Assembly (NCBI GenBank): GCA_020137815.1
Contig: CM035356.1
Location: forward strand, 4,650,001-4,714,000
DNA length: 64,000 nt
Reading direction: 5' to 3'
Origin: Hormiphora californensis
Taxonomy: Eukaryota; Animalia; Ctenophora
Under the pieces are notes generated by a model. The model did not search any database. It saw only the letters and a program-made list of their open reading frames with translations, and was not told the DNA's origin. The position numbers and the translations under genes are program-made. Of the stretch, positions 27,083-45,900 are shown piece after piece. Positions within the stretch are counted from its first letter, which is position 1; each line of letters begins with the position of its first letter.

Positions 27083-28644
27083 ATGCCAGCTACAGCCTAC
27101 ACCCAGAACGTAACCCTTACAGACCCACATCTCAGCAAATCTAACTCCGGCCAACTAATAGAACGGTTACTTGGCCACTTTCTTTTCCACCGAGGTCAGA
27201 TTGAGAAGCCCCTCGAACAGTTACGTGATGAAAACAAGCCTGCAATGCGAGTTAAACTACAGTATAGCGAGAGATCAACACCGTATAAACACAAGGGGTG
27301 TGAAGGGATGTTTGCCACGCCCCTTCCAGCTACTCCCAGTGTAACTAGGGATGTAGAGGGTTTGGCGAGGTCGCTACACGGGTTTTCCATACACACAGAG
27401 GAGGGGAAGGAAGAGGATTGTGTTATGGGTAGGTTGCTTTACATTTCCATTTACAAGTTGTAAATTTCAGTCCATAAGTGTGAACTATAAGTGGTGCATG
27501 TGAATGTGATTTTAAAGGGATGGCCATTCTTAGAAGATGTATTTCTGCCCGTACCTGTTCTTTATTTACTTGAGGGTGATGCCCTACTTCCAGTTTATAT
27601 TTGTAGATCACAATTACAGTGTACAGTGTACAGTGTACATGCTAAACACATGTACTCACTAGATACGCCTCTGACAAGTAGGGGAGAGGATGCAGCCCCA
27701 GCAGCAGAATCAAAACCACGCAGAGTCCTGGGAAAACTACAAGAGGTAAGGAATCAGTTCTGTCTGAGGTACAAGAGGTAAGGAATCAGTTCTATCTGAG
27801 GTACAAGAGGACTGTCTGTAAAACAGTTCAGTTAGGAGATCTATAGAAAAACTGTTAAACTTCAATTAAACTCCTGTGTTTCATCAGGTGTCAGTTCCTA
27901 TAACACCCCAGCTGAACTATAAGAAAAAGAAAAGTCAGAGTAGCACTGAGTACCTGGTGGAGATTGTGGAACAAATCAAGGCACACATGGAGGCAGGCTG
28001 GATTATTAACAAGGTATAACACACTCGGTTTCTAATTTCTTTTGAAAGAAAGGCTACATTGTTAGAGAAATTGTAAAGCGAGTGCCGAGTGGGTGAAAGC
28101 TTCATACAAATGTTCATGTCAGGGAAGTGAGATTTTTATGATTTGGAGCCTGTTTTTGAAGACGCCTGTCTCCCTTTATCAGTTTATAAACTCCACTTGT
28201 TTTTAGGTGATTCTGCTACTCGGAACGACAGTTATGTCTCCCAAGGAATCCTATATAATCGACCTCTCCTCACTCTCCTGTACCTCTCACTCTCCTTCAC
28301 CCCCAAACCTATCTCTCTCGCTCCGCCAGATCATGCAGAAACTGTTCACTGATCCTGATCTCAACGCCCTCCCCTCCCTCGCTAACTACTCAAACTGCCA
28401 CATCCTCCTGCAAGTTGACAAGGAGAGTGTCACGGAAACATCATTCTTCCTTCCGAAGCTGAGGTTTTCCCTTCCAAACAGGGGGACTAGATACACACTG
28501 AATTTAGTGACGTCACAACATAATGACATCATAACAGAGGAAGAACAGCTCTATCTGGCAGCCCCACGGCCGTTTAGGGCAACAAGGACGATCGATTCAC
28601 CCACTGTTTCTAGGGACTTACTTGATACTATCGAGTGCTGTTGA
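27083..28644 (+). CDS. MAD2L1BP: MAD2L1-binding protein (p31comet)
   Basis: Exons ~27083-27428, 27663-27746, 27888-28012, 28207-28644. Motifs LLGHFLFHRGQIEKPLEQL, ILLLGTTVMSPKESY, FLPKLRFSLPNRG and LAAPRPFRA match the p31comet HORMA-like pattern. Confidence 0.8.
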
Positions 28645-29214
28645 GATGTAGTAAGATTTATTGGTCTGAAGGCTGTCTGGCGCTGCGAGTTGCGACCCAT
28701 CTGATCGCACTGGCAAATGGGGTATGGCGCCGCCATACAGTCTGAAGGGGTTAGATTTAGGTAACTGACTTGATAAAAACGTATCTTATCGAGTTAATAA
28801 TTTATGCTTGCTGGACACAGTATTGTACACAGTATTGTTTGCACAATGTGTACATGTTGTACATTCTGTGTACATGTGTTTACATTTAGCAGCCAATAGT
28901 TTGCTCAATTTATCTGACCGTTTCTTAAAGCGATACAAAAGTTTTGTAAAAGCTGGAAAATAATAATTTCTAGGTTTTTTAAAGTTTTTACCTTTCCATT
29001 TCTTAGACAGTTTCTGGTGCCTTTCTATAATGCAATATTCATTGAAATCACCCGCTAAAAATGTTTTAAAAATTTTGCTCCGTCTCGAATGTTGATTATT
29101 AACCCCCCTCAACCTTGCACATTTACATGATTACCTAAGAAACTAGTATAGGTTTGATATATATATTCGCAACCGAAGAACTACCCTCCCTCTGATCTAT
29201 AGGTATTATGTCTG

Positions 29215-29352
29215 ATGTTACCGACTCCTGAAACAGGTCCCCTTGATCCGTCTGTATATCCACCAGCAGAAGACACCTTCCTTCTGTTAGACGTGCTTGA
29301 AGAACACCTCCTTAATTCATCCCCCCTGATTTCCCTTGAAATCGGACCAGGT

Positions 29353-29445
<93 letters not shown>

Positions 29446-30446
29446 CTCTCTCTCTCTCCTAACTATATTTCAGGTTCAGGTGTAATCTCGACTTTGATCG
29501 CAACTGCCACCCCCACCTGTCACTGTATTGCTATTGACATCAACCCAGCTGCAGCATCTGCTACCAGAAACACCGCCAAGAAAAACGGTCAGACAGTCGA
29601 CGTTATCTGCTCTGATCTTGCCAACTCTATTTTAGGTAGGATAGAAAACAGGAACCAATCAGAACTCGTTGTTTAAGTCACGTGACTGGTTATCAGCCAA
29701 TCAGGGACCAGTATTTCCTGATTTGATAGAGAAATAAAGCTTGAAGAAGTTGTAAAGCTTGCATACGTATCTAGTTTTACATTTTACGCCCCCACACTTT
29801 ATTACTTCACCACATCCCGCACCCAATTAGTACACCAGTACCATAATTACAGCTACCAGGCCACCCCTAATTACACCCCTAATTACATGTTAACTACATC
29901 CTAAGTACATGCTATTTATCGTTACAGGTGGCAAAGTTGATTTGTTGGTTTTTAACCCACCCTACGTAGTGACTGACCCCTGTGAAGTCAGTAAGTGGGG
30001 AATAGAGGCCAGTTACGCAGGAGGTTACTTCGGAAGACAGGTAACCAGAATGTGTTAATTATTCCCATTATTTTACTTTTTCGAGATTCTTTCCTTTTTT
30101 GCATACATGTTTGTTGTAACGTAGTGCGAGACTTGGTTACGCGCGGAGGGGTAATTTCATTACCAAGTGCGAGACCCAGTTCCATAACTCATTTGCATTA
30201 TATGGTATCGAGCTGAGTAACAAAATGATGATCACCATTTTCCCTTGTCGCAGGTTATAGACGAGTTTCTACCGCGTGTTCCAGATCTACTAACCCCCGC
30301 CGGAGTTTTCTTTCTACTGGGAATCAAGCAAAACAAGCCAGAAGAAATCATCTCCATTTGTGAAGACAAACTCGGACTAACTGGAGAGATAGTAGCAGAA
30401 CGGAAAGCAGGCATAGAACGGTTGTGGGTTGCAAAGTTTTCCAAAC

Positions 30447-30457
<11 letters not shown>
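29215..30457 (+). CDS. N6AMT1: HemK2/N6AMT1 methyltransferase (204 aa, 4 exons)
   Basis: Exons 29215-29350, 29474-29635, 29928-30040, 30254-30457. Motifs MLPTP, VYPPAEDTFLLLD, LEIGPGSG, DINP, VDLLVFNPPYV, YAGG.FGRQVID and RKAGIERL. Confidence 0.93.
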
Positions 30458-40849
<10,392 letters not shown>

Positions 40850-40866
<17 letters not shown>

Positions 40867-42998: not shown

Positions 42999-45900
42999 TC
43001 TCCCAGGTATTTTACGTTAATATCCAGACCCGTGCCTCATCTTGGACCCAACCCGAGGGATTTATAGCAACTAAACATGAACTGCAGAGCCTAAAAAGGA
43101 AACGTCAGCTCTCATCTCACTCATCCTCCGATCGTTGTTGTAAGAAAGTGCGGCACAGTACGGTGAGCAGAGGGAACGAGGGTGCTGCGGCTGTTGACTC
43201 TGGCAACAAGACGCCCCCGGGGGAGTTCTTCCAAACCAAAGTTAAGACACCCGAGAAGGGAATCAAGAAGAAGAGTATGAGGGAAGGCCGAAATGAAGAA
43301 ACAGGAGGACCTGAAGGTAGGGGATGCAGTGATGACAAACAAACAGACAAACTAACAGACAAACTAACAGACAAACTAACAGACAAACAGACAGACACAC
43401 TAACAGACGCACACGACGAGACAGGTTTTCAAGATCCAATTTCTCGAGTTACCGGGGTATATATTGTGACCGGTAAATCAATAATTGTGCCGTGAACTGA
43501 GAGAGATAGTTACTGTCTTGCTCAGATTTTGCCAATTTCAGATTATCTGGAACACTACAGCGAGAAACGGCAAGCGAAGTATTGGTTTAACATCAAAAAC
43601 AAACATGCACAGTGGAAAAAACCAGCATGCATACAAGGTACTTTGAGAGCGTTTTGGGGCTGGGAAATAATTAGCAAGTAATTAAAGTACATTTATACTC
43701 AAACTAGCGCACCCATTGGGTGCGCCTGAAATAAGGGCCTTTTGATAACCCACCCGGCTTCGCCGGGTGTTTCTTTTTGCCCCTTTCAACGTCAATAACA
43801 CGGTTGCCATGGCAACTGAATTGGTAACTAAGGACTGGCATGTTAAAAGTCATTCGAAAATATTAACAAACTTCGCCGGAAGTTCCAAAAGTGTGAGTAA
43901 CAGCTTTAAAGCTTTTGGCGTACAAAGTGTTTTATGAAGGAGTACTGTCGCGTAGAAACGCACTGAACGAACGACTTCGACGACGTTCATCTCCAAATTA
44001 TAATAGAGATACATAAAACTAACTGTGTGTACTTGAGGTTCGATAATTATGACTGCTGTATAGGATTGTATTTTATACTAGAGCAATTATCAACAGCCCA
44101 ACACAAGGGAGTTGATGAATGAGAGTTACCGAGAACCGTACACGTTACTGAGAGATGTGCGGCAGGTGTACTTTGAATATATAATGTCTAATCACAATCC
44201 CTCCCCAGCCAAGGAGAGCAAGGAGGCGATAGCGAATGTGAGAAGAATGAAAACCGAGCAAGATATGGCAAAAACAAAGAAAGAAGAGAAGGAGGAAGAG
44301 AAAGAAATCGAGCAAGATATGGCAAAAACAAAGAAAGGGCAAGAAGAGAAGGAGGAAGAGAACGAAATCGAGGAAGATGTAGACTTGAAGTTGGATCAAA
44401 TTGACAAATTAAAGGAGGAGATTCAGGTGGAAACTGAAGAGAAGTATAAAAACAGCAAGATCGAAAAACGAAACCGAGATAATACTAAAAGGAAGGAGCT
44501 CCAACTCCCCTCTACTAAAGAGAAGAAGGAACAGAAGAAGGAACAGAAGAAGGATCAGAAAAAGGGGGAAGATAAAACAGTTCTTATCAATGGCGCTGCT
44601 GCAGCTGCAGTCGATGATTATGGAGAGAGTTGTGGGGAGGAAGAAGATGTGATAAAATCCTCCGCTCTTAACCCGGATGCTGCTGAGTTCTCTCCCTTCA
44701 AATCTATCCCCTCTCTCTCCTCCCCTCCACTAAATGTTGACGCTGCCGAGTTTGTTCCTAGACAGGATTCACCTCTCAAGGGGGCCTTCCAACCCACAAC
44801 GGTCACTATAATTAACGGTAAGTCAGTGAAGAGATTCCCGAGTACACGGGAATATAGATAGTAGCGGCCCTCAATAAACTGTAAACCTCAATGTTGTGTT
44901 TTCCCTATTTCTAGAGAGATGAGAACTCAATATTCTCAATATTGTCTTCAGCCCGATAAACCTTGTTATCGAAAATATGATATTTTGTGACCTTTTTCAG
45001 ATAAAATATATTTTTCAGATAAAATATATTTTTCAGATAAAGTATATATTTGTGACCTTGTATATTTTTCAGATAAAGTTCCAGATTTTAAAAGTCCAGT
45101 TCAACCTCGTCCAAAGAATGGTAGGATAAGAACGATATCATTACGGCGGTCTGTCAGTGACCCTACAGCACCCACCAAGGAATACGGTCCTGACAGGTAA
45201 CTAAAGTTGGGGCTGGTAACCAGTTCTAAAGTTAGGGCTGGGAATTGGTACTAAAATTAGGGCTGGTAATCGGTACTAATTTGTTTAGGCCTAATTCCCA
45301 TCAGCCAACCTAAAATACTTTCGCCTGATGAATCTCATTCGCAATTATACTAATTATAAATACACTACTTCTCGATAGAGCCCGAAGATCTGCGAAGGAG
45401 AGGTTATCATTGTCTGGCGGGGCTGACTCAATTTCAGCGGGCGAAAGTAAACCAGATGTTAGACGGAGAATTGAAGCACCACGGAAGTCAGCACATTCTC
45501 GGCTGGGACCTAAAAGTTATAAAGACTCGTCAGAAATTGAGTAGGTACCCATTACTCACACACACATGACACATGACACATGACACACACACACACCCAT
45601 CACTCTGCCATGTCGGACCCCGATTTACCGGGATCCTCGGGGAAAGGGTTTTGTCCGGTAAATCGGGGTGCCCGATATAGATCGGGGTCAAATACTGTTA
45701 ATTTCCTATTATATCAGGGGAATTTTATCTTCCCGGTAAATCAGGGTTCCGGTAACTGTATCTCATATTACCTTTCAGTCTTTCCTTCCAACTACTAAGT
45801 TCTGTGGTCAGTAACATCCTATTAAGAGAGTGTGATCATCTCTCTATCGCTTCTCCAACTCCACATCCAGGTCAGTGCCATGGGGTCAGTAGGAGAGGCA

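Follow-up and report, generated by a model that had tools for sequence, protein, structure and literature searches.

A probable bicistronic N6AMT1-UTP25 mRNA with an internally AUG-free first cistron in Hormiphora californensis

How can two conserved proteins be produced from a locus whose coding sequences overlap on the same strand? This question is raised by N6AMT1 and UTP25 of Hormiphora californensis, which lie in a 64,000-nucleotide stretch of DNA analyzed here as a whole (the window). Our analysis suggests that a single mature mRNA, probably capped with a spliced leader, likely serves for the translation of both; on it, UTP25 would be reached by ribosomes scanning through an AUG-free first ORF (ORF1). 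Since the genes overlap and internal Met is absent throughout the clade, one mRNA likely makes both proteins.

ORF1 encodes an N6AMT1/HemK2 protein of 204 aa in four exons on the + strand, from the ATG at 29215 to the stop at 30457. Three GT..AG introns join exons 29215-29350, 29474-29635, 29928-30040, and 30254-30457. RNA contigs of a near relative, aligned to the window at 80-85% likeness, confirmed the splicing of intron 2, the only N6AMT1 intron so seen, and introns 1 and 3 were placed by homology. Exon 1, position 30254, and the leader site fall outside the cover of these contigs, which have no bearing on them either way. The run search gave small shares only (0.10, 0.07, and 0.00). Position 29203 is the putative first exon base behind an AG, and the ATG itself is at 29215. 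The features of the first cistron are as follows.

29201..29202, + strand: AG acceptor, putative spliced-leader trans-splice site, preceded by a pyrimidine-rich tract
29208..29231, + strand: uORF of 7 codons, out of frame over the N6AMT1 start, A at -3
29203..29350, + strand: N6AMT1 exon 1, CDS from ATG 29215, N-terminus in agreement with homologs
29474..29635, + strand: N6AMT1 exon 2, 0 ATG, Pfam MTS E 0.00027
29928..30040, + strand: N6AMT1 exon 3, NPPY motif, 0 ATG
30254..30457, + strand: N6AMT1 coding part of the shared exon, sole ATG that of UTP25, matched by 91% and 64% homologs
30447..30457, + strand: dual-coding overlap of 11 nt, UTP25 ATG (+1 frame) followed by the N6AMT1 stop

The GxGxG and NPPY motifs are both intact in the ORF. 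The Pfam MTS/Methyltransf_25 match on exon 2 was below the curated cut-off. The best named matches of P0001, a homolog 91% identical to the window protein, were N6AMT1/HEMK2. The class I SAM-binding motifs and these named matches identify the product as an N6AMT1/HemK2 methyltransferase. The context of the ATG at 29215 is weak (C at -3, T at +4), and the 7-codon uORF runs from ATG 29208 to TGA 29229-29231; both had been described in the initial annotation and were found unchanged.

The UTP25 ATG at 30447 lies in the +1 frame and precedes the N6AMT1 stop (TAA 30455-30457) by 8 nt, so that the two CDSs overlap by 11 nt. All features of the arrangement first proposed, four N6AMT1 exons with a UTP25 ATG 8 nt upstream of the TAA, were therefore present. 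The second ORF gave a Pfam UTP25_NTPase-like match (E 6.5e-25), and a Utp25_C match was found at 39164-39487. The CDS has at least eight coding exons and reaches about 40851, as listed below.

30447..31403, + strand: UTP25 first coding exon, the same exon as the N6AMT1 3' end, PF22916, matched by P0121-P0123 at 40-45%
31603..31831, + strand: UTP25 coding exon 2
33465..33622, + strand: UTP25 coding exon 3
33735-33917, 34451-34654, 38439-38597, 39260-39412, and 40768-40851, + strand: remaining UTP25 exons, approximate, by tblastn with P0121 and P0122

Both protein-coding ORFs are thus intact, conserved, and neighbors on one strand. The N-termini of the UTP25 homologs align from 30447 (P0122 from residue 4 at 30444), and the tails of N6AMT1 homologs read in the shifted frame point to the same start. 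These results place the UTP25 start at the overlapping ATG, as the initial annotation had assumed, and not at a later AUG.

We examined the ATG content between the two starts. No ATG was found in the 601 spliced nt, which bears out the earlier claim of none against a naive expectation of about nine. The expected number was 8.9 by base composition, 6.3 by a first-order Markov (dinucleotide) model (P 0.002), and 11.7 by the ATG density of the window UTP25 CDS (P about 9e-6), which served as the density background. The only exonic ATGs from 29203 to the N6AMT1 stop are those at 29208, 29215, and 30447. Introns 2 and 3 of N6AMT1 contain 2 and 5 ATGs, and the depletion is therefore exonic. When the protein was held fixed, 5.3 out-of-frame ATGs were expected in the window ORF1 (P 0.0007), and 3.8 were expected when ORF1's own codon usage was also kept (P 0.008). 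By comparison, 3-14 ATGs were found over similar spans in 11/11 counted HemK-family loci from outside the clade (80 fetched). The region upstream of ORF2 is AUG-depleted, as in a bicistron read by scanning.

To place the window protein among its relatives, homologs were searched with P0001. The best 120 of 287 matches were used, and the top 12 (52-100% to P0001) were taken as close homologs. The window protein and all 12 formed one clade against 20 outgroup rows (support 98/97). The 90% cluster of one homolog includes Bolinopsis microptera XP_063684374.1, and it is the only cluster among the clade homologs with a named ctenophore member; from this member and the leader-like sequence described below, we infer that the clade represents ctenophores. 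Its pairwise identity is 54-92% (median 61%) and its tree length 3.86, and the 12 homologs amount to about six or seven deep lineages.

Internal Met was absent from all 13 clade proteins (the window protein and 12 homologs). The cores of the 12 homologs contained 0 Met in 2369 residues, compared with 320 in 20,717 residues of 106 outgroup proteins (108 rows, 2 without the anchor motif dropped), of which two were Met-free. Met-free cores were also seen in 6 of the 122 full-length outgroup representatives of 50% clusters (149 examined, 27 without a single full-length core dropped). Kinship was allowed for by simulating evolution on the clade tree from a Met-free root (LG+G4, 1000 runs). At most 9 of the 13 tips stayed Met-free, none of the 1000 runs matched the observed 13/13, and a mean of 15.4 columns gained Met, compared with 0 observed. 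A generally low Met content in these animals was also considered. This explanation was rejected, as the UTP25 homologs P0121-P0123 have 14-19 internal Met.

A scan of metagenome contigs returned 80 loci, two of them transcript-like contigs from the clade (L001 and L002). L001 (2650 nt), from a distant relative, is intronless and carries both ORFs. It begins with a 27-nt leader-like sequence, followed by an upstream ATG (uATG) at 29 and N6AMT1 at 36-665; after a spacer of two bases, UTP25 starts at 668. L002 has the same N6AMT1-UTP25 junction, a complete UTP25, and a terminal A-run. These intronless contigs join the two ORFs, which may lie on a single mRNA molecule, but as assemblies they could also merge overlapping transcripts. 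No ATG is present between the two starts of L001, whose ORF1 has 0 ATG in 629 nt against 11.8 expected, and 38 ATGs follow from 668 onward. A strong context (-3 A, +4 G) surrounds the UTP25 ATG in the window and in both contigs. The Met-free clade and the AUG-free ORF1 of L001 continuing into UTP25 support the bicistronic scanning interpretation of the initial annotation; orthologs with normal internal AUG content, which it had named as counter-evidence, were found neither among the 13 proteins nor in L001.

ATG is also the only one of the 64 triplets missing from both the window ORF1 and the L001 ORF1. Codons for D/N/H/Y standing before G ended in T in 0/6 cases in the window ORF1 and 0/2 in the L001 ORF1, compared with 23/29 and 26/32 in the UTP25 CDSs of L001 and L002, which served as the codon-context background. 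In L001 alone, with the protein fixed, the out-of-frame depletion was not significant (1.4 expected, P 0.17). Dipeptides prone to contain ATG are halved in the clade (17% vs 37% of D/N/H/Y). Out-of-frame AUGs are avoided in ORF1 as well.

The initial annotation had offered trans-splicing of UTP25 as an alternative. One pre-mRNA would be resolved at the acceptor 30253, which would be used in cis for N6AMT1 or with a spliced leader for a monocistronic UTP25 having a 193-nt AUG-free leader. H. californensis trans-splices at least 56% of its mRNAs (PMC8527503), and two UTP25 contigs have just 213-229 nt outside the CDS, as such a transcript would. However, this arrangement predicts AUG loss in exon 4 only, and exons 1-3 alone contain 0 ATG in 408 nt, with 7.9 expected by UTP25 density (P 4e-4). 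Met is missing along the whole protein in 13/13, and the leader in L001 lies upstream of ORF1. The alternative is therefore weakened by the depletion in exons 1-3, and we consider it unlikely as the main route. A separately trans-spliced UTP25 may exist as a minor isoform.

Another possibility is that the locus contains two independent units, with a UTP25 promoter inside N6AMT1, N6AMT1 polyadenylation at an AATAAA over its stop, and an incidental lack of AUG. The hexamer is present at 30453-30458, overlapping the N6AMT1 stop of the window, and several N6AMT1 contigs are short. Among 17 clade contigs, 7 extend 2.0-2.6 kb past ORF1, giving space for most or all of UTP25, 2 extend about 1.4-1.5 kb, and 8 less than 500 nt. 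Four UTP25 contigs have 505, 667, and (in two) 213-229 nt outside the CDS. The short contigs fit a fragmentary assembly and also separate mRNAs. Pieces of near-relative RNA stop at 30436 and resume at 30590, with no bridge over the junction among the pieces listed. However, AATAAA occurs nowhere in L001 or L002. In P0001, the 91% relative, the frame reads on through the place of the AATAAA, and so the hexamer is not kept as such. Two independent units also give no cause for the clade-wide Met loss, which was matched in 0/1000 simulations. We regard this explanation as very unlikely and a shared mRNA as the better account.

We then compared the junction among the homologs. In 11/12 homologs, a D/N/H/Y followed by a residue with a G-starting codon was found 4-6 places past the last KF. 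As this dipeptide is what an overlapping ATG requires, these 11 tails can hold the UTP25 ATG. Its residues vary among the NAT-codon amino acids across homologs, and it was found in only 1/103 and 12/82 scorable outgroup proteins (5/108 and 65/147 rows without a scorable tail were dropped). The tail of P0003 and the N-terminus of the UTP25 homolog P0121 fit one DNA read in two frames at 18/18 positions up to the stop, while the best of 20,000 shuffles reached 10; this match suggests that the two proteins come from one species. The P0010 tail fits P0122/P0123 over 6 positions. The one exception, P0011, belongs to the 90% cluster of P0199, the ORF1 protein of L001, and is explained by the UTP25 ATG of L001 falling 2 nt after the N6AMT1 stop. 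The spacing thus differs widely: the ORFs share about 18 codons in P0003/P0121 and are 2 nt apart in L001, with frame changes.

These junctions bear on two further explanations. In the first, N6AMT1 would be extended into UTP25 as a fusion protein, through frameshifting or alternative splicing. Most lineages have overlapping ORFs, as a fusion would allow. However, their relative frame varies among lineages, a stop separates them in L001, and the strong-context UTP25 ATG is kept in the window, L001, and L002. A search for longer proteins containing exon 4, which is a weak test, gave just products of 210 and 214 aa. A fusion is thus scarcely credible. The second is termination-reinitiation, in which ribosomes would complete N6AMT1 and then initiate again at the UTP25 AUG close by. 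This stop-restart type is known from caliciviruses and influenza B virus. In the window and in L001/L002, only a short distance separates the UTP25 AUG from the N6AMT1 stop, and the same probably holds for the other homologs, judging from their tails. However, a restart at the stop needs no AUG-free ORF1, the spacing and frame vary as described above, and the start of ORF1 is weak. We therefore judge stop-restart to be quite unlikely, and scanning through ORF1 remains our preferred explanation.

The Bolinopsis protein is also of note for annotation. P0187 (B. microptera XP_063684374.1) is a RefSeq protein of 167 aa, compared with 213 aa for P0007. The two are identical for 149 residues, after which the last 18 residues of P0187 match an out-of-frame translation of part of the same CDS (18/18). 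The short form is likely an annotation artefact beside the overlapping UTP25. Annotation thus seems to mis-model the N6AMT1-UTP25 locus, with the RefSeq protein cut short by an off-frame tail.

The leader region was compared between the window and L001. The 27-mer of L001 ends in TGAG and joins 1 nt ahead of the uATG. By eye, it shares the 5' CAAACTT and the terminal TGAG with the H. californensis leader (cf. PMC8527503). The window contained no convincing copy of the 27-mer (best 20/27). In L001 the leader is present only upstream of ORF1, and L002 continues from ORF1 into ORF2. The window and L001 each have the uATG at -7 with A at -3, opening a uORF of 7 and 13 codons, respectively. A short uORF in favorable context over the ORF1 start is thus conserved in the two lineages for which DNA was available. 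The N6AMT1 ATG has C/T at -3/+4 in the window and T/G in L001, with a pyrimidine at -3 in both. By the -3/+4 rule alone, ORF1 context is weak and ORF2 context strong in the two lineages. The recurrence of the uORF at -7 in L001, in a better context than ORF1, suggests a route of bypass and reinitiation. Whether the uORF matters, relative to plain leaky scanning, is in our view a toss-up.

Based on these features, we propose that ribosomes would enter at the leader and be split three ways. Some would initiate at the uATG and, after 7-13 codons, terminate beyond the N6AMT1 AUG; on scanning further, these ribosomes would next meet the AUG of UTP25. Others would leak past the uATG and make N6AMT1. 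The remainder would leak past both the uATG and the weak N6AMT1 AUG and reach UTP25 directly. Any AUG within ORF1 would capture ribosomes on their way to UTP25, an essential ribosome-assembly factor, and selection would therefore purge all of them. A more speculative extension is a trans-spliced bicistronic mRNA throughout the ctenophores, in which the tiny uORF just behind the leader routes ribosomes past N6AMT1 to UTP25. Such an mRNA would be the cellular equivalent, in animals, of the ORF35-36 switch of a herpesvirus. Since reinitiation after a uORF depends on the release factor and the ternary complex, N6AMT1, as the enzyme that methylates eRF1, could act on its own mRNA by feedback and so determine how much termination modifier is made relative to ribosome-assembly factor. 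We put this extension forward only tentatively and consider it possible rather than probable.

Similar arrangements have been reported in other systems. In KSHV (Kaposi's sarcoma-associated herpesvirus), uORF2 overlaps the start of ORF35 and drives ORF36 (PMC3561293). As at N6AMT1-UTP25, the KSHV transcript has a short uORF with A at -3 over the ORF1 start, few internal Met in ORF1, and a partly overlapping ORF2, which is reached by scanning after uORF termination, the same route that we propose here (PMC3561293). The KSHV case is viral, has two uORFs and a relatively strong ORF1 context, and tolerates one internal Met, and its authors named HBV alone as a further case in 2013 (PMC3561293). 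Unlike it, N6AMT1-UTP25 belongs to the cellular genome of an animal and has introns, a single uORF, an ORF1 start in weak context, and no internal AUG.

In Drosophila stoned and snapin transcripts, in-frame AUGs attenuate ORF2 (Wall et al. 2005, cited in PMC3372440). HemK2 itself (CG9960) is the second cistron behind snapin in Drosophila, and the pair has been traced as far as Daphnia (bioRxiv 2024.01.29.576963, PMC2276209). Like snapin-CG9960/HemK2 and stonedA/B, the present locus would be an animal nuclear dicistron whose ORF2 relies on the lack of in-frame AUGs in ORF1. The same enzyme is ORF2 behind snapin in flies and ORF1 ahead of UTP25 in H. californensis, and from these opposite positions we infer an independent origin of the fly and ctenophore dicistrons. 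Insects are described as having no spliced leader (PMC7986045). Green-algal bicistronic loci are translated by leaky scanning, as tested with reporters, and share a weak ORF1 context, a strong ORF2 context, a short leader, and AUG depletion ahead of ORF2 (PMC11892635). However, the algal depletion is partial and internal AUGs remain (PMC11892635), whereas N6AMT1-UTP25 shows complete depletion, overlapping CDSs, and a leader that is probably trans-spliced, and is known from sequence alone. The locus would also resemble the operons of nematodes, tunicates, and others in that neighboring genes are co-transcribed in an animal with spliced-leader trans-splicing (PMC7986045). Those operons are cut between the genes into monocistronic mRNAs (PMC7986045), whereas the N6AMT1-UTP25 overlap leaves no intercistronic space, and the AUG loss throughout ORF1 points to an uncut mature mRNA rather than a cut operon.

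A 2021 paper described operons and polycistronic mRNAs as unreported in ctenophores (PMC7986045). Our literature search, with subscription papers and supplements outside its scope, found no prior report of ctenophore bicistrons or of the N6AMT1-UTP25 pair. As the stoned/snapin and HemK2 dicistrons of Drosophila have already been described, the scanning-dependent bicistron as such is known. The new elements are the gene pair, the animal group, the complete AUG loss across the pair, the overlap of the CDSs, and a spliced leader combined with a uORF that overlaps the start. If the interpretation is correct, a bicistronic mature mRNA is present in the sister group of other animals and has been kept despite trans-splicing that could split it. 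Selection for scanning would then have been strong enough to strip Met from a whole enzyme of 200 residues across about 3.9 substitutions per site. HemK2 would be part of a dicistron in arthropods as well as in ctenophores, at opposite positions, and the testable question arises of why this enzyme is co-translated. Met-free orthologs may also serve as a cheap genome-wide screen for hidden bicistrons.

Outside the clade, Met-free N6AMT1 cores were found in P0244, P0275, P0340, P0224, P0228, P0299, P0036, and P0112. The Met-free N6AMT1 proteins outside the clade include those of Artemia, Bursaphelenchus, Choanoeca, and Coemansia. They may be due to either chance or further bicistrons.

Several other observations were made in the window. 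A p31comet/MAD2L1BP gene is located at 27201-28644 on the + strand (Pfam PF06581, E 1e-7), with one intron seen spliced. The gene stops 558 nt short of the putative leader acceptor, with which it shares the strand. No AATAAA lies in this gap, and p31comet could belong, as an upstream member, to an operon-like unit. The Pfam-recognized host genes in 11999-57283 are all on the + strand: F-box/LRR, LOTUS-domain, p31comet, N6AMT1-UTP25, and single exons at 44082 (PAM2 motif) and 56894 (PCIF1). Intron 2 of N6AMT1 contains a 71-nt repeat at 29653-29723, with copies at 38626-38696 and 39774-39844, and most of the RNA contig depth near 29653-29723 comes from this small repeat, which had many matching contigs in all three runs. 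Intron 2 of UTP25 contains an intact + strand ORF of about 346 aa (32114-33154), flanked by two CA microsatellites, which we take by eye to resemble a LINE ORF1-type protein. On the - strand, three tandem, mutually similar ORFs of 190-256 aa at 1-2859 are GNAT acetyltransferase-like by eye.
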